A DNA stretch of 64,000 nucleotides, taken from the IMG/VR virus record IMGVR_UViG_3300032289_001255, positions 1 through 64,000 of that record, one strand, 5' to 3'. Below the pieces are notes generated by a model. The model was not told where the DNA came from. It saw nothing but the letters and a program-made list of their open reading frames with translations, and ran no database searches. Position 1 is the stretch's first letter, and each line of letters begins with the position of its first letter. The translations under genes were made by a program, and so were the position numbers. Origin of the DNA: a virus (Duplodnaviria; Caudoviricetes). Shown piece by piece: positions 6,522 through 53,332 of the stretch.

Positions 6522-7820
6522 GTGAAGTACAGTTCCAAAATCTATTTAAAACTAATAACTAAAGATAATAATTGTCATAATAAGAACAATTCGATTATCG
6601 CTGCATTTGTTTATGATTTTGGAACTCAACGTAAACATTACTATAACTTCACTCATGGAGATGTGATTGCAGATTCAACATTCGAAGATTTTAAGAAAGA
6701 AATAGAATCGAGGAAATACACGATATACGTAAATAATAAAAAAACTTATAAATACTGGTTGAATTGTAAACTAATAGATGTGAATTTATTTGGGTTCATA
6801 AAAAATAACGAAACAATTGAGGAGTGTTCTTCCACAACCAAAGATTATTTAAATAGATCACACCGTAATGTTAATGACTTTAACTTAATAGTTCCGTACA
6901 TAAGTCATCAAGAATGTTTTGATGATGAAGTAGAATTAATATGTGATCTACACGAAGCTGATACAGATACTTACTGTTTTAAGTTTTTCAATGATATTAT
7001 TACAGATACATTATTTGAAGTTGAAAAGAATGGTTTAAAAGTTGATGTAGATGTATTTAAACAACATTTTAAATCGCGTGTTTATGATGGATTTGTGTAT
7101 ACTAGCTATAACATTTACAATCCAACGGGTAGACCGAGTAATGCTTATGATAACATAAATTATGTAGCTTTAAAGAAAGATGATGGTTCACGTAATAGTT
7201 TTGTGTCGAGATATGGAGACAATGGTCATTTAATGATGATTGATTTTACTGGATTTCATCCACATATCGTGGCAAATTTGATTGATTATAAAGTTCCTGA
7301 AGAAGAGACCATTTATGAATATCTTGGAAAACAATACTTTAATGTAGACGAAGTTACATCGGATATTATTGCTAAGGCCAAGAAATTGACTATGGTTAAT
7401 CTATATGGACAAATTTCTCAACAATACTGTGATATACCATATTTTGCTAAAGTAGAGACTTTAAAGAATAAGTACTGGGAAACTTTTCAGAAAAAGGGAT
7501 ATATAACTACTCCCATCTATAAAAGAAAGATATCAGACAAACACATTTTAGATCCAAACAAAAACAAATTGTTTGCATATATTATTCAAGCGGCTGAAAC
7601 TGAACATGGAATCGATAGTTTGGGCAAATGTATTAAGTTTGTAAGCAATAAGAGAATAGTACCAATTCTGTATGTATATGATTCTATTGTATTTGACATA
7701 CATAATGATGAAGATAGTCAGAACGTATTAGACTTAATTGAGATTTTCAAGAACAACCGGTTCAAAGTAAAGACTTATCGGGGAAATAATTACAATGATT
7801 TGAAATTAGTTAATTTATAA
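6522..7820 (+). CDS. Divergent family A DNA polymerase-like protein
   Basis: 'YNPTGRPSN' (cf. TGRLSS), motif A 'MIDFTGFHPHIVA', motif B 'AKKLTMVNLYG', 'AYIIQAAETE' (cf. N.PIQG.AAD), motif C 'YVYDSIVFD'; GTG start. Confidence 0.75.
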   Translation: MKYSSKIYLKLITKDNNCHNKNNSIIAAFVYDFGTQRKHYYNFTHGDVIADSTFEDFKKEIESRKYTIYVNNKKTYKYWLNCKLIDVNLFGFIKNNETIEECSSTTKDYLNRSHRNVNDFNLIVPYISHQECFDDEVELICDLHEADTDTYCFKFFNDIITDTLFEVEKNGLKVDVDVFKQHFKSRVYDGFVYTSYNIYNPTGRPSNAYDNINYVALKKDDGSRNSFVSRYGDNGHLMMIDFTGFHPHIVANLIDYKVPEEETIYEYLGKQYFNVDEVTSDIIAKAKKLTMVNLYGQISQQYCDIPYFAKVETLKNKYWETFQKKGYITTPIYKRKISDKHILDPNKNKLFAYIIQAAETEHGIDSLGKCIKFVSNKRIVPILYVYDSIVFDIHNDEDSQNVLDLIEIFKNNRFKVKTYRGNNYNDLKLVNL

Positions 7821-11372: not shown

Positions 11373-11410
11373 AAGCCGGTGGAGTTTTTATACCCCACCG
11401 GCTTTCTAGT
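11373..11410 (+). terminator. Intrinsic terminator-like hairpin after the SSB gene
   Basis: AAGCCGGTGG (11373-82) pairs with CCACCGGCTT (11395-404), followed by T-rich sequence. Confidence 0.7.
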
Positions 11411-11420
11411 TATATACGTT

Positions 11421-12560
11421 ATGGCAAAAAAAAGTGTTAGTAAAGATACGGGTCAACGTGACGAGCTTATCGAAATGTTGGCAAATGAATTAAATAAAGC
11501 AAATAAAGACGGTGGAAAGATTGCTCATTTTCTAGATGAACAAGACAATCCATCTGAAATTACGGATTGGATTAGCACTGGTTCTTCTATTTTGGATTTG
11601 GCGATTAGTAATCGTCCTCACGGCGGATTGCCAGTTGGTAAAATGGTAGAATTTAATGGCCTTGAAGGTACTGGTAAAAGTTTGCTATCCGCACACGTTG
11701 TTGCCGACACTCAGAAGAAAGGTGGAGTTGCAGTAGTAATTGATACTGAAAATGCAGCTGCTCCTGAATTCTGGAGAAGTTTGGGTGTAGATCTATCCAA
11801 GTTACTATATGTTCAATGTGAAACCGTTGAAGATATTTTTGCTCAGATGGAACGAATGATTGCTATTGTTCGTAAGAGCAACAAGGATCGTATTCTAACA
11901 ATCATTGTTGATTCTGTAGCAGCGGCATCAACTAAGGTAGAACTTGAGAGTGACCACGGTAAAGATGGTTATGCTACTGGTAAATCAATCATTATCAGTA
12001 AAGCAATGCGTAAGATTACCACTATGATTGGTCGTCAGAAGGTTCTTACTGTATTCACCAACCAATTACGTCAGAATCTAAATGCTATGGCATTTGGTGA
12101 CAAGTATGTAGTTAGTGGTGGTAAGGCACTTGCTTATCACTGTAGTGTTCGTGTTCGTTTGAATAATACTGGTAAACTCAAAAAGGGTGAAGAAATTATT
12201 GGAAACGAATGTAAAGCAGTTGTTGTGAAGAATCGTATGGGTCCACCACAACGTCAAGCAAATTTTGATATTTATTTTGATTCTGGAATTGCGGATTATG
12301 GTTCTTGGATCAAGGTATTGAAGGAAAATAACTTGGTGAAACAAGGTGGTGCTTATTACACATACAAGAAGGACAATGGATCAGAATGGAAGTTTCAATC
12401 CAAAGACTTTGTAAACATTATGCAAAGTGACAAGGAATTGAGTGAAGAAATTTACTTGAAGATTTGTGACGCTGTAATTATGAAATACAAAGATCCTAAT
12501 AGTCAGATCATTGACGATGCTGTAGTTGAAACAGAAGAAACTGCAGGCAACGAGGAATAA
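11421..12560 (+). CDS. uvsX: RecA/UvsX recombinase
   Basis: 'WISTGSSILDLAISN...GGLPVGKMVEFNGLEGTGKS' Walker A, 'IIVDSVAA', 'FTNQLR', 'SGGKALAYHCSVR'. The start was moved to ATG 11421 because the longer frame runs through the terminator. Confidence 0.95.
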   Translation: MAKKSVSKDTGQRDELIEMLANELNKANKDGGKIAHFLDEQDNPSEITDWISTGSSILDLAISNRPHGGLPVGKMVEFNGLEGTGKSLLSAHVVADTQKKGGVAVVIDTENAAAPEFWRSLGVDLSKLLYVQCETVEDIFAQMERMIAIVRKSNKDRILTIIVDSVAAASTKVELESDHGKDGYATGKSIIISKAMRKITTMIGRQKVLTVFTNQLRQNLNAMAFGDKYVVSGGKALAYHCSVRVRLNNTGKLKKGEEIIGNECKAVVVKNRMGPPQRQANFDIYFDSGIADYGSWIKVLKENNLVKQGGAYYTYKKDNGSEWKFQSKDFVNIMQSDKELSEEIYLKICDAVIMKYKDPNSQIIDDAVVETEETAGNEE

Positions 12561-12570
12561 TACATTAATT

Positions 12571-12610
12571 GTTTTCCACACAGTCATCTATATTAGACTG
12601 TGTGGAAAAC
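12571..12610. terminator. Perfect 15-bp inverted repeat (terminator or processing hairpin)
   Basis: GTTTTCCACACAGTC (12571-85), 10-nt loop, GACTGTGTGGAAAAC (12596-610). Confidence 0.7.
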
Positions 12611-12651
12611 TTTCATTCGACTAAGATTTATTTAATACAAACATTCGTTAA

Positions 12652-12780
12652 ATGAGTAACTTTGACAACAAAGAAATGAAGAAGTTATTTTCTTTATTTC
12701 AAAACATAGAAAGCGATTCCGTCACCGGAGGACTTAAAAAATCACTTAATAGTGATGTCCTTTTGGTTGACGGATTGTAG
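12652..12780 (+). CDS. N-terminal 42-aa fragment of the 5'-3' exonuclease (ends ...SDVLLVDGL*)
   Basis: ATG 12652, in frame to GAC GGA TTG TAG (12769-80); 'VLLVDG' is the first catalytic strand of the FEN/PIN fold. Confidence 0.75.
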   Translation: MSNFDNKEMKKLFSLFQNIESDSVTGGLKKSLNSDVLLVDGL

Positions 12781-13724
12781 TGAATACTTACATTAGAAGT
12801 TTTATGGCCATTCCGTCTCTCAATGAGGATGGATTGCATACAGGTGGTATTGCTGGTTTCTTGAAGAGTATTGGGTATGCAATTAAATTACTTTCTCCTA
12901 CCCGAGTTATTATTGTATTTGATGGTAAAGGTGGTAGTCAGAAACGCAGAAAGATTTATCCAGCGTACAAAAATGGTAGAAAGACAGATATTAGACTCAA
13001 TCGTAATTACGAAGAACTATCTTCATCTGAAATAGAATCTGTAAATTTTAAAAAAGAATTGATTCGTACTATAAATTATTTAGATACATTGCCTGTTACT
13101 GTAATGGCAATCGATCAAATAGAAGCAGACGATACAATTGCTTATTTAGCCACAGAAACTTTCAAGGACAGTAATGTAACAATTATGTCCACTGATAAAG
13201 ACTTTTTACAATTGGCAAACGATAAAGTCAAAATTTGGAGTCCTGTCAAAAAGAGAATTTTTGGTTGTAAAGAAATCTTGGATGAATATGGTATTACATG
13301 CAGCAACTATATCTTGTATAGAGTTATGGAAGGCGATGTAAGTGATAATATACCTGGTTTAGATGGTGTAGGTTTAAAACGGGTAGTAAAATCATTTCCT
13401 TTCTTATCGGAAGAACGTCAATATGATCTAAATGAGATTTACAATTACGCGGAGAATAACAAGACTAAATATAAAGTATATCAGACTGTATTAGACAACA
13501 AGCTATTGCTTGAACGTAATTATAGTTTGATGCAGTTGAAAGATACGCAAGTGCAATCATTTACCCAGTTACGTATAGAAGAAATTATAAAATCTCCCGT
13601 GCGTAGAATTGATAAAATGAGCTTTTCTAAATTAATCACAGAGGACAAAATGTGGAATAATATCCCCAATTATCACATTTGGCTCAATGAGTGTTTCGGT
13701 AAATTAAATAGTTTCGTAGAATAA
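12780..13724 (+). CDS. rnh: 5'-3' exonuclease / T4 RNase H-like (FEN) protein, body lacking its N-terminal DG motif in this frame
   Basis: 'NTYIRSF', 'IVFDGKGGSQKRRKIYPAYK', 'IEADDTIAY', 'IMSTDKDFLQL', 'GDVSDNIPGLDGVG' (H3TH). Confidence 0.85.
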   Translation: MNTYIRSFMAIPSLNEDGLHTGGIAGFLKSIGYAIKLLSPTRVIIVFDGKGGSQKRRKIYPAYKNGRKTDIRLNRNYEELSSSEIESVNFKKELIRTINYLDTLPVTVMAIDQIEADDTIAYLATETFKDSNVTIMSTDKDFLQLANDKVKIWSPVKKRIFGCKEILDEYGITCSNYILYRVMEGDVSDNIPGLDGVGLKRVVKSFPFLSEERQYDLNEIYNYAENNKTKYKVYQTVLDNKLLLERNYSLMQLKDTQVQSFTQLRIEEIIKSPVRRIDKMSFSKLITEDKMWNNIPNYHIWLNECFGKLNSFVE

Positions 13725-29862: not shown

Positions 29863-30786
29863 CTATTTAAATATTGACTGTATGGTACCTAACAGTTTAT
29901 TATAATTGCGTCCTCCGTTTTTTTTCCAATCTTCAATGTTGTCGTATACCGGATGTACCTTTGCATTAGATAATTTGTTAATATAACTATCTGGATACTC
30001 CAAATACATAGGTCTTAATTCTTTACCTTTATTTACATATTTAACAACGGGTTTATCAAAATAAGCACAAAGAATGCCTCCGCCACCATTCATTGTAATA
30101 AAACCATCTGATTCGGAGAATAGTTTTAACTGCAATGTATTATAATCTAGATTATATTGTTTCTGTAAATCATTTAAATTTAAAACTTTGTTATTAAAGT
30201 ATTTACATAAATCAAAATCTGTAATTGTCCCTAGATTTTCTATATTTGATATTAATGATAATTTATTCTCCAGTGTAATTTGTTCATTAGAATCTAATAC
30301 AAATTCGTCGTTGACAGGCCTTTTATAAATAACGGTATAACCTTTGTCCGTCAAATAAGAAAACATTTCAGATAGATTTTGAATATCAAAGTATCTATAA
30401 GGTCTAAACCCATCAGGACCAGGCTCAAAGTTACATATATTATTAACAACTACATATGGTTTTAAGTCATCAAATAGATTATTTTTATAATACTCTCTAT
30501 ATGACGGAGCAATCCATTCACTGTAATCTATAACACCGTTTCTTCTACCTCCAGCGTCTGAATTGTGAATCCATTTATTGGGTACATCTTTTAATGCGAT
30601 GGAATTATCTAATGTACGTTCATTGAATGATTCTACTACATTATCACAAAAGTAATAAAAGGGTTTCATTCCTTTTGAAGTAACTACCTTTTCCAATAAA
30701 TTATTTTTATGTAAATAATATGCGTAAGGTACACAGAGAACTATTTCGGATGCAAATTCTGGATTTACTTCAATCGTTTTTTTCAT
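29863..30786 (-). CDS. Hypothetical glycan-related protein (possibly GT-B-like)
   Basis: 307 aa within the island; 'KLFSESDGFITMNGGGGILCAYFDKP' resembles GT9-like C-terminal motifs. Confidence 0.45.
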   Translation of the reverse strand: MKKTIEVNPEFASEIVLCVPYAYYLHKNNLLEKVVTSKGMKPFYYFCDNVVESFNERTLDNSIALKDVPNKWIHNSDAGGRRNGVIDYSEWIAPSYREYYKNNLFDDLKPYVVVNNICNFEPGPDGFRPYRYFDIQNLSEMFSYLTDKGYTVIYKRPVNDEFVLDSNEQITLENKLSLISNIENLGTITDFDLCKYFNNKVLNLNDLQKQYNLDYNTLQLKLFSESDGFITMNGGGGILCAYFDKPVVKYVNKGKELRPMYLEYPDSYINKLSNAKVHPVYDNIEDWKKNGGRNYNKLLGTIQSIFK

Positions 30787-51734: not shown

Positions 51735-51994
51735 CTAACGTTATATCCTTTGTTTTCTTCTTGAGTAAACATTTTATTATAGTTTAAATTTGTCTGTCTC
51801 TGTTTTTCTATAGTCTTTTCGTGAATAATTGCATAATCTTTTTGCGGAGGTATAAAGACATAACTTTTGAAGCCTTCTACTTTTTCATGTAATCTTCTTT
51901 CGTACCTAATGTGTGGTAAATTACGATATAATCTGGATTGATAATCGGGTACATTTATTAAAGGAGGATTGTATTTAATTTTAATGAGTGCCAT
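51731..51994 (-). CDS. C-terminal fragment of a split GT2 glycosyltransferase
   Basis: 'INVPDYQSRLYRN...LHEKV...AIIHEKT' is the usual C-terminal part (PDYQxRL, HE, H) of the GT2 type begun at 53332. Confidence 0.75.
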   Translation of the reverse strand: MALIKIKYNPPLINVPDYQSRLYRNLPHIRYERRLHEKVEGFKSYVFIPPQKDYAIIHEKTIEKQRQTNLNYNKMFTQEENKGYNVR

Positions 51995-52793
51995 AATATT
52001 TTTCCAATAAAAATTCTTTTGAGATTGAACTTTTTGTATTTTTAATACTATTTTGATTTGATGGTATAAATTCTAGATTATCTATAGATCCAACTATTTT
52101 TGGATCTATACCATCTTTAAAACCTTGCTTAATACTCAATTTATGATCCAAACTATATGATCCTGATACTTCTATTCTAGCTCTTTTGTTATAATTTTCT
52201 AATTCTGTTAAATTATTTTGGTTAGTATAATACCAGACTAATTGCTTATATTGTTGCCATTCCGATTTTTTTGTTAATGGGGTAAAATATCCAAGATTCT
52301 CCATAGTTTTTCTCCACTGTTCTACAGATCTATTTTCTGAAACTGATTTTGAAACTTTTTCCCTATATTCTTTGTTTTTCCAAAACAGTTCGGTGTGTTT
52401 GCCAATTATTTTCTTAGTGATTTCATCGTGTTTAAATCCAGTATGTTTTTTTGCATTATTATCTATAATATCATTTGTATATTTCGTCAATCCTTTGTTC
52501 CAAGGCGGATTGTTTTTTCTATATTCAATCATTCGTTTTGAATGTAGTTCGCCCATTTTTTTTAAAGATGAATTGTTTTCTTTTGTTAAACCACGATTCC
52601 AACTTCCACATTTATTACATTTTCGTTTTTCTCTGAAACAACATCTCGCTGAGATCACATTTTTATGAATGATATTCACGGAACATTTCGGACATTTTCT
52701 AATCCACAAAATATTTCCGTTGTCATCTTTTGCTTCTATGATTGAAGAATAATCAATGGTTGTAGTGCCTTTAGGTCTCATATTATTATACAT
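51981..52793 (-). mobile_element. Homing endonuclease gene (Zn ribbon + NUMOD3-like repeats + HNH/His-Me finger) inserted in the GT2 gene
   Basis: 'CPKC...CNKC', repeated 'SWNRGLTKE/PWNKGLTKY', 'GFKHDEITKKII', C-terminal 'SLDHKLSI...NLEFIPSNQNSIK'. Confidence 0.75.
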
Positions 52794-52816: not shown

Positions 52817-53332
52817 TTAATATATATTAGATTCTTCCAATATAAATCCATTAATTTTTAAAAATTTATATTCATTCGATTCGTTGTCTATTATTTTTTC
52901 ATTTATTAAATCTTTAAATGTACTACATTGCCAACCCCACATATTGATGTCTTGTTGTGTCACCCCGTGGAAATAATTTAAACGTGGCAACCATAATACT
53001 TCATTGTTATTGTTCGATTCAATAATTAAATCTATATTCTCTATCAATCCATCCGTGGGAATTTCATCTGCATCTAGTTGAAAGATCCATTCACCTTTAC
53101 ATAATTCTATACCATAGTTTTTATGTGCACCATAATTTTTATCTAATTTATGTTGATAAAAATTTATCTTTTCTTTATATTTCTGTATAATTTCCAAAGT
53201 TTTTGGATTGTCTGAATAATCATCAAGAAGAACGATCTCATGTTGTTCTTTTATGTTGGAAATTAATTTGTTTAATAGTTTTTCTAAACTATCTGTTTCA
53301 TTATGACACGTTACTAGATAAGATAAAAACAT
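52817..53332 (-). CDS. N-terminal fragment of a split GT2 glycosyltransferase
   Basis: 'SYLVTCHNE', 'LDDYS', 'HKNYG', 'QLDADE' (DxD), 'PRLN', 'WGW'; stops before the PDYQ motif. Confidence 0.8.
   Translation of the reverse strand: MFLSYLVTCHNETDSLEKLLNKLISNIKEQHEIVLLDDYSDNPKTLEIIQKYKEKINFYQHKLDKNYGAHKNYGIELCKGEWIFQLDADEIPTDGLIENIDLIIESNNNNEVLWLPRLNYFHGVTQQDINMWGWQCSTFKDLINEKIIDNESNEYKFLKINGFILEESNIY

Follow-up and report, generated by a model that had tools for sequence, protein, structure and literature searches.

How does a phage keep a nuclease gene whose active-site motif is interrupted by a stop codon and a change of reading frame? This question is raised by a 64,000-nucleotide stretch of viral DNA (Duplodnaviria; Caudoviricetes), positions 1 to 64,000 of IMG/VR record IMGVR_UViG_3300032289_001255, which we refer to as the window. 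In it, the flap endonuclease gene of a lake phage (FEN, a 5'-3' exonuclease) is broken within its active-site motif by five extra nucleotides (nt), TAGTG. A first-pass annotation of this DNA had recognized the break and offered three explanations: a programmed stop-hop of the ribosome from UUG to GUG, the scar of a lost group I intron, and an inactivating mutation or assembly error. On comparing the locus with its relatives, we conclude that TAGTG is probably an inherited coding gap at the edge of a homing-endonuclease gene (HEG) cassette, which ribosomes would cross by a +5 stop-hop, and as such a miniature counterpart of the mobA/gene 60 arrangement of phage T4.

A 5-nt gap in the active-site motif of a phage FEN

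The window reads GAC GGA TTG (12769-12777), TAG (12778-12780) and TG (12781-12782), and continues from 12783 with AAT ACT TAC ATT AGA. Because TG flanks the gap, the same five nucleotides can also be written as GTAGT or TGTAG. The junction lies between two open reading frames (ORFs) and comprises the following features:

12652..12777 (to 12780 with the stop), plus strand: ORF1, the FEN N terminus; 42 codons ending ...DVLLVDGL, with the first strand and the catalytic Asp
12775..12777, plus strand: proposed take-off codon TTG (Leu42), the final sense codon of ORF1 and the Leu of DGLN in intact relatives
12778..12782, plus strand: the 5-nt coding gap TAGTG, with the stop TAG at 12778-12780; lacking in intact alleles
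12780..12782, plus strand: proposed landing triplet GTG, the same as the take-off TTG at positions 2 and 3
12783..13724, plus strand: ORF2, the remainder of the 5'-3' exonuclease/FEN; 313 codons (NTYIRS...) and the stop TAA

In the program-made ORF list, the second half appears as a 314-amino-acid (aa) ORF running from GTG 12780 to 13724. ORF2 matches the N-terminal resolvase-like nuclease domain 5_3_exonuc_N (PF02739, E=8.9e-27) over profile positions 11-164 of 164 only, and an intact relative, P0001, matches positions 2-164, spanning the junction. The C-terminal H3TH/SAM-fold domain 5_3_exonuc (PF01367) scored 28.1 bits in ORF2, under the curated cut-off of 40, and the region aligned with Taq Pol I reaches Taq residue 206.

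Intact relatives are 355 aa long, the sum of 42 and 313, and read DILLVDGLNTYIRS (DGLNTYIR) across the site. ORF2 is 96% identical to P0001 residues 43-355, and ORF1 59% identical to residues 1-42 (tblastn). In a phmmer alignment, P0001 residues 35-47 run gap-free against Taq Pol I residues 13-25 (VLLVDGHHLAYR). The Asp of ORF1 (GAC 12769-12771) thereby falls on Asp18, which we take to be a metal ligand, and the Arg of ORF2 on Arg25. The Asp reaches NTYIR in the family register only when five nucleotides are skipped. Removing exactly these five restores the FEN motif, and removal of the gap likewise yields the motif of each family (DGL-NTYIR, DGL-NTFIR or DGT-NTF), with the Asp-to-Arg spacing of Taq Pol I. 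The insert that the first-pass annotation placed at the first catalytic motif is thus where it was said to be.

Gapped alleles recur and follow a codon rule

The exact junction of the window, TTG TAG TG, was present in 35 IMG/VR contigs from 34 datasets, so the gap is real DNA and not an assembly artefact. Close homologues with gene calls of 314 and 306-307 aa hinted at further interrupted copies. At the DNA level, one of these (L002) reads GGT TTG TAG TTG AAC and two others (L003 and L004) GGG TTG TAG TTA AAT, each with six in-frame extra bases at the same codon boundary. A pattern scan of IMG/VR contigs, with the flanks fixed and the middle triplet set to TRR, revealed stop-led inserts at this boundary in four or five FEN lineages whose N-termini differ considerably:

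5 nt, TTG TAG TG: 35 contigs
5 nt, CTG TAG TG: 1 contig
5 nt, ACT TAG CT: 1 contig
5 nt, ACG TAG CG: 1 contig
5 nt, ACG TAG CT: 1 contig
6 nt, CTT TAG CTT: 13 contigs
6 nt, TTG TAG TTA: 5 contigs
6 nt, CTT TAG CTG: 3 contigs
6 nt, CTG TGA CTC: 2 contigs
6 nt, CTC TAA CTT: 1 contig
6 nt, CTT TGA GTA (L222): 1 contig

A stop was present in all 64 FEN inserts, and all three stop codons occur among them. When the middle triplet was left free, the scan found no 5- or 6-nt FEN insert with a sense codon; the sense-codon matches were unrelated genes. A metagenome scan added three more alleles of the Thr family, the remainder being chance matches, mostly to one recurring human-gut-metagenome sequence. 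A wide-gap scan (N{5,34}) gave chance matches only, among the matches listed. One apparent allele, L185 (CAT TAG CAT), was rejected as a chance match in non-coding-looking DNA. The gapped FEN allele L222 (CTT TGA GTA AAC) lies on the reverse strand, about 249 nt from its contig end. Protein-based searches cannot show the junction and were used for intact alleles, which each family also has, reading DGL-NT(Y/F)IR or DGT-NTF(I/M)R.

Most of the inserts follow a common pattern. Among the seven 6-nt variants, six have a triplet behind the stop whose first two bases equal those of the codon ahead of it. The 5-nt variants follow the form XYZ TAG YZ, in which the bases after TAG repeat bases 2 and 3 of the preceding codon (4 of 5 variants), and the triplet made up of the stop's G and the two following bases matches the take-off codon at two of three positions. 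Leu codons of either box show this echo, and so do Thr codons.

These comparisons settle several of the earlier suggestions. The alignment of related genomes called for by the first-pass annotation uncovered a stop conserved after DG(L/T) at the same boundary; since the allele is not unique and this stop is conserved, a simple, unique pseudogene is refuted on the annotation's own terms. An artefact of assembly or sequencing now has next to no probability, and the same goes for a scar left behind by a group I intron. The same five nucleotides occur in 35 contigs that are independent of one another, Rfam searches returned no intron-like match or remnant, no relative had an intron or long insert at the site, and a leftover of 5-6 nt is unlike the way in which introns are lost. 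There is a link to a mobile element, but it is to a free-standing HEG cassette in relatives, which the first-pass annotation had not noticed.

Both halves of the gene are under purifying selection

Among stop-bearing cassettes of the window's family, the ratio of nonsynonymous to synonymous substitution rates (dN/dS) of ORF1 was 0.08-0.38 at dS 0.3-2.4. For ORF2 in the same cassettes, dN was 0.09-0.22 and dS was saturated or close to it. All complete ORF2s next to a gap have their full length (313-322 aa), and no second disruption was found in any of the approximately 64 stop-bearing alleles. Within type B, the allele type of the window, dN/dS was about 0.95 on very few changes. Both halves are open and under purifying selection. 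The low ORF1 ratios and the full-length ORF2s indicate that ORF1 is translated and matters as a protein, and that the gene has been spared decay where a lineage has had the stop for a long time.

The gap marks the edge of a homing-endonuclease cassette

The gap sits two codons after the catalytic Asp. When the window was aligned with an intact locus (L016), similarity of about 89% extended to the end of recA and resumed exactly at AAT 12783; the spacer, ORF1 and gap between these points did not align to L016. Read from such comparisons, the gap forms the 3' edge of a mobile cassette composed of a HEG, a diverged replacement ORF1 and the gap itself. To the left of ORF1 in the window lie two features:

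11379..12560, plus strand: RecA/UvsX-like recombinase gene (Pfam RecA, E=1e-53), the left homology flank of the cassette
12561..12651, plus strand: intergenic spacer, the HEG position in sister alleles, with a terminator-like inverted repeat (12572-12585/12596-12609)

The distribution of the cassette is mosaic. ORF1 is 93-100% nucleotide-identical among type-B alleles whatever the ORF2 background, and the ORF2s of these alleles span 78% to 99% amino-acid identity. Gapped and intact alleles are intermingled on the ORF2 tree, even at the level of identical ORF2 proteins; the well-supported branches require at least 12 changes of state, and five sets of identical ORF2s hold both states. The gap can also be removed by a crossover inside ORF1, as indicated by the recombinant L144. 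In this locus, and in L072, ORF1 is chimeric: its 5' half and the upstream spacer are type-B-like, and its 3' half (TTNSDILLVDGL, CTT) is like that of intact alleles, with no gap and with the hairpin described below lost (-12 kcal/mol).

The complete form of the cassette is seen in L183, whose ORF2 is 99% identical to that of the window. A 310-aa ORF lies between recA and ORF1 in L183, its last codons overlapping the ORF1 start. It matches NUMOD3 and the Vsr-like REase_MTES_1575, both under the Pfam curated cut-offs, and is a homing endonuclease in PHROGs. This protein is 58% identical to the product of an ORF beside the CTG TAG TG allele and 48% identical to that of an ORF beside the Thr-family ACT TAG CT allele. 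The CTT TAG CTT alleles adjoin an unrelated HNH-NUMOD3 endonuclease. A recA-to-FEN distance of at least 580 nt was found at 0 of 69 intact and about 33 of 62 stop-bearing loci (family 1 plus the pattern-scan loci, not all of them independent), and in family 2 the corresponding association was seen at 9 of 9 stop-bearing loci and at 6 of 64 intact ones. Intact alleles of the window's family have a recA-FEN spacing of 1-40 nt, rising to 125 nt in the two chimeric-ORF1 loci. Some endonuclease copies look degenerate: in one case a 611-nt gap holds no ORF, and in L376 and L399 the ORFs are truncated or broken.

In the window itself, the spacer 12561..12651 contains no endonuclease ORF, and tblastn found no HEG homologue in the whole 64 kb. 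There was also no HEG match in the nearest record, G001, a 20-kb fragment. Alignment of the window with L183 ends at 12563 and picks up at 12646, and no credible match falls in the 82 nt of spacer between. The window carries an endonuclease-less derivative or relative of the cassette and not the complete element, the HEG having been lost or never present. In L183, an inverted repeat at 7754-7815 (GTTTTTCCGCATTG ... CAATGCGGAAAAAC) brackets the endonuclease start codon and could serve as a recA terminator that also hides this start. A similar repeat persists in the window at 12572-12609, though the endonuclease gene is absent.

An RNA hairpin precedes the proposed take-off codon

One further feature lies directly upstream of the gap:

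12713..12778, plus strand: RNA hairpin; core stem CCGUCA (12719-12724)/UGACGG (12768-12773) plus inner stems, its 3' base abutting or overlapping the take-off codon

This hairpin has a minimum free energy of -29.9 kcal/mol (z = -4.7; 0 of 200 shuffles folded as well) and was better than 500 of 500 synonymous-codon shuffles. The hairpins of stop-bearing alleles beat synonymous-codon shuffles at z of -2.5 to -6.3. The closing stem CCGUCA/UGACGG, whose 5' arm lay outside the search pattern, is invariant in 20 stop-bearing alleles, and the next outward pair covaries with the wobble base of the Gly codon (GC 10, UA 3, GU 2, UG 2, AU 2, mismatch 1). The stem ends directly before the take-off codon or 0-3 nt into it. 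Since loop lengths differ between families, MAFFT and RNAalifold recovered the closing stem only, and the inner stems were judged per sequence.

As a signal specific to the gap, the hairpin was rejected. Hairpins of equal significance occur in gap-less alleles, at z of -2.7 to -8.0 against synonymous-codon shuffles of the 80 nt before DGL-N (L090, L117, L146, L013 and L122 in family 1; L377, L385, L428 and L396 in family 2), in roughly the final 20 codons of the N-terminal segment. The hairpin of intact family-2 alleles takes in the Leu codon itself and shows visible compensatory changes. The hairpin is older than the gap or independent of it, and may explain why this spot tolerates one. Candidate roles are regulation of FEN expression, an endonuclease recognition element and a mutational hotspot.

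Stop usage and genomic context

The 60 window ORFs of at least 100 aa end in TAA (38), TGA (21) or TAG (1). The sole TAG among them, at 29863-29865 on the minus strand, is followed by the ATG of the next gene. The rarity of TAG, which is the stop of most gaps, would fit a poorly terminated, slow codon at the A site of the ribosome. Reassignment of TAG, or a suppressor tRNA, was considered and rejected: the occurrence of all three stops excludes reassignment of one of them, no tRNA genes were found in the 64-kb window, and the standard code gives a coding density of 94%.

The neighbourhood is a phage replication module with a gp32-like gene, recA/uvsX, FEN, dnaB and ribonucleotide reductase. 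Flavobacterium phage immuto has the same gene order with an uninterrupted FEN. The recA-like ORF is listed from GTG 11379, and its translation suggests an ATG 14 codons further in as the true start (MAKKSVSKD...). The window has a G+C content of 31.7%, and minus-strand ORFs lie at 51981-52793 and 52817-53332 on the ORF map.

A proposed stop-hop and its alternatives

Of the explanations offered at first, the stop-hop from UUG to GUG is the one that the comparisons favour, though it stays a candidate; it is consistent with the related take-off and landing triplets, the stop that is always kept and the purifying selection on both ORFs. On these grounds, we propose such a hop. The ribosome would pause with peptidyl-tRNA-Leu on UUG (12775-12777) and the rarely used stop UAG in its A site. 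The tRNA would then un-pair, the mRNA slip forward by 5 nt, and the tRNA re-pair with GUG (12780-12782) at two of three positions, with decoding resuming at AAU 12783. The product would be a 355-aa enzyme, ...VLLVDGL-NTYIRS..., in a register identical to that of intact relatives, and its tryptic junction peptide would be SLNSDVLLVDGLNTYIR. The stable hairpin, with its 3' arm ending at the take-off codon, may aid forward movement on re-forming behind the ribosome.

The gap may owe its existence to the endonuclease. From the T4 precedent, the endonuclease would be expected, during mixed infections, to cut gap-less FEN alleles near the conserved DNA coding for DG(L/T)-NT; the break would be mended by copying of the cassette, whose gap would protect its carrier from cutting. 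By analogy with T4, the strong divergence of ORF1 would leave the interval from the cut site to the endonuclease gene without homology, and the gene would as a result be co-converted. An in-frame sense insert would add residues to the catalytic loop in every molecule. By contrast, a stop flanked by re-pairable triplets would let a fraction of ribosomes make the wild-type protein. This difference in burden may be why only stop-led inserts with an echo codon were seen. Extended to the wider set of alleles, the claim that FEN genes carry a natural family of +5 and +6 stop-hops that evolved as HEG self-immunity devices seems to us only a little more probable than its negation.

Several observations weigh against a hop. 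The landing GUG of the window matches the take-off codon at two of three positions only and sets a G opposite A36 of the tRNA, and hops over stops in published synthetic constructs are reportedly inefficient. Two variants, CTT TGA GTA (L222) and ACG TAG CT, fit the echo rule poorly; L222 may be a decaying allele, a case of UGA read-through or a tolerated mismatch. The matched triplets could in part reflect an origin of the insert by duplication and not selection for re-pairing. Intact ORF2s are weaker evidence in type-B alleles than they appear, because ORF2 backgrounds recombine freely with intact alleles, and a selfish endonuclease could spread a crippled allele, so that abundance alone is no proof of function. 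The hairpin is not hop-specific evidence, because intact alleles carry it too. Finally, six intact, gap-less family-2 FENs (L421, L422, L452, L435, L441 and L443) lie beside an HNH-NUMOD3 gene, located between recA and FEN, and the gap is therefore not the sole route to coexistence with an endonuclease. In these six loci, immunity, if needed, must come from base substitutions, or the nuclease must have another target.

The alternatives would have to explain the same alleles. Termination at UAG and re-initiation on the overlapping GUG (UAGUG) would yield two chains, one of 42 aa and one of 314 aa, which would associate non-covalently as a two-piece enzyme. A stop and a legitimate start codon do overlap in the window (TAGTG), L002 has TAG and then TTG, and purifying selection on ORF1 fits this model equally well; moreover, phage enzymes that were split by HEGs and reassemble are documented (T4 gp39/gp60 and Aeh1 NrdA; bioRxiv 10.1101/2022.08.31.505936). 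We nevertheless consider such an enzyme unlikely. Most variants offer no usable start after the stop (CTT, CTC and TTA, or GCT and GCG in the Thr family), re-initiation gives no reason for the following triplet to echo the preceding codon, the split falls two residues past the catalytic Asp, inside the 13-residue stretch that is gap-free against Taq 13-25, and the GUG adjoins a stable hairpin. We see no better prospects for a gene that a parasitic cassette has simply killed, with the allele kept by endonuclease drive and recombination with intact alleles, and with the 5' nuclease of host Pol I or another phage nuclease covering the loss of FEN. Drive can fix harmful alleles, the near-invariant ORF1 of type B suggests recent spread, its dN/dS near 0.95 is in line with inactivation, the ORF2 backgrounds are common to intact alleles, and the 64 kb cover part of a larger genome in which a second nuclease may lie elsewhere. 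Against inactivation, the old HEG-less cassettes L002, L092, L134 and L151 (dS 0.9 to >2) keep ORF1, stop, echo codon and full ORF2, and the stop-bearing alleles lack second disruptions. A middle triplet that is always a stop, although the stop differs by lineage, is hard to explain without selection on decoding, and the window has no endonuclease left to drive its allele.

Recoding of another kind appears less probable again. A +2 or -1 frameshift at UUG-UAG would give DGL-V-NTYIR or DGL-VV-NTYIR, and read-through or a suppressor tRNA could act in the 6-nt relatives. The -1 frame stays open from 12771, shifting is classically stimulated by a stop in the A site, and in-frame 6-nt alleles would need no more than read-through. 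However, the site lacks a slippery sequence, the tRNA would pair less well after +2 (GUA) or -1 (AUU) than after +5 (GUG), and the added residues would upset the Asp-to-Arg spacing held in common with Taq. For the 5-nt alleles, read-through offers no rescue, and it would have to act on all three stops; the lack of tRNA genes in the window and its standard code speak against suppression. The junction peptide would separate these models, being VLLVDGLNTYIR for the hop, with the products of the shifts heavier by 99 Da (Val) or 198 Da. Overall, a +5 stop-hop within a HEG cassette remains the reading that we prefer.

Relation to known bypassing systems

The closest precedent is the mobA element of T4, which combines a free-standing endonuclease, a diverged copy of the adjacent gene segment and a bypassed, untranslated insert that blocks self-cleavage (bioRxiv 10.1101/2022.08.31.505936; PMC5009743). 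The bypass of T4 gene 60 goes back to Huang 1988 and Bonocora 2011, as cited in these two sources. The gene 60 gap was shown experimentally to protect against MobA and to travel with mobA, and elements of this type were found with and without a nuclease, their partners being HNH, Vsr-like or GIY-YIG enzymes (bioRxiv 10.1101/2022.08.31.505936). The FEN gap resembles this system in being a non-coding insert in a conserved catalytic region of a DNA-metabolism gene, with a stop directly after the proposed take-off codon and then a related, candidate landing triplet. It also lies at the edge of a free-standing HEG cassette with a diverged replacement segment, which occurs with and without its endonuclease and is associated with HNH and Vsr-like nuclease types. 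The two differ in length (5-6 nt against 50 nt) and in host gene (FEN against topoisomerase II), and we found no sequence homology to gene 60. The FEN gap has no internal take-off stem-loop or Shine-Dalgarno sequence, unlike gene 60, and instead has a large conserved hairpin 5' of the take-off codon; for gene 60, a 5' stem-loop was proposed to drive forward movement (PMC5009743; bioRxiv 10.1101/2024.12.09.627546). The landing match in the window is also only two of three, and the FEN hop is a candidate one.

In synthetic stop-hops in Escherichia coli, a stop lies between matched codons and 9 nt are read as one amino acid (Weiss et al. 1987 via PMC5009743); the title of that paper names +5 and +6 events. 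The 6-nt FEN relatives have exactly this matched-codon form, and the window has the +5 form. Those were engineered constructs, and the FEN arrangement occurs in nature, is conserved in several phage lineages and has a link to a mobile element. Short in-frame stop-hops are easily made in the laboratory, and no natural one was known according to a 2016 review (PMC5009743).

Two other systems offer partial parallels. The byps of Magnusiomyces capitatus mitochondria, 27-55 nt long and 81 per genome, involve an unused A-site codon (PMC5009743). Like the FEN gaps, they are short blocks inserted in coding genes and skipped in translation (for FEN, as proposed), their take-off and landing pairs do not always match perfectly, and mobility has been suggested for the inserts; the FEN gaps differ in being in phage, with a stop in the A site and an endonuclease partner. 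A candidate bypass in the terminase of Streptomyces phage Hau3 yielded a junction peptide by mass spectrometry in E. coli (PMC10732093). It too would join two phage ORFs over a short distance, with a slow A-site codon triggering take-off; in Hau3, unlike FEN, the trigger is the rare sense codon UUA, a regulatory role was proposed and no homing endonuclease is involved. Our literature searches, whose coverage was incomplete, turned up no publication dealing with bypass or stop-hops in a FEN gene. Bypass within a HEG cassette is of a known kind, and what the window adds is the +5 out-of-frame form, the two-of-three landing match and the endonuclease-less state.

Implications

Translational bypassing in bacterial viruses long rested on one natural example, T4 gene 60. 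If the FEN hop is real, it would be the first natural stop-hop and an independent second invention of the mobA/gene 60 strategy. The smallest insert able to destroy the endonuclease target and yet allow ribosomes to restore the wild-type protein would then be a rare stop followed by a repeat of the codon before it, beside the base of an RNA hairpin, and the window's +5 form would show that a two-of-three landing match suffices. Gapped FEN alleles offer a natural set of 5- and 6-nt inserts, with varied stops, take-off codons and hairpins, for probing the minimal needs of a hop. Gene callers currently split or truncate these genes (306- and 314-aa calls), and if the hop is true, active nucleases are being mis-annotated as fragments. 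The association with two unrelated endonuclease types supports the idea that a recoding signal can be the price for a selfish nuclease of marking its host gene as occupied without destroying it.

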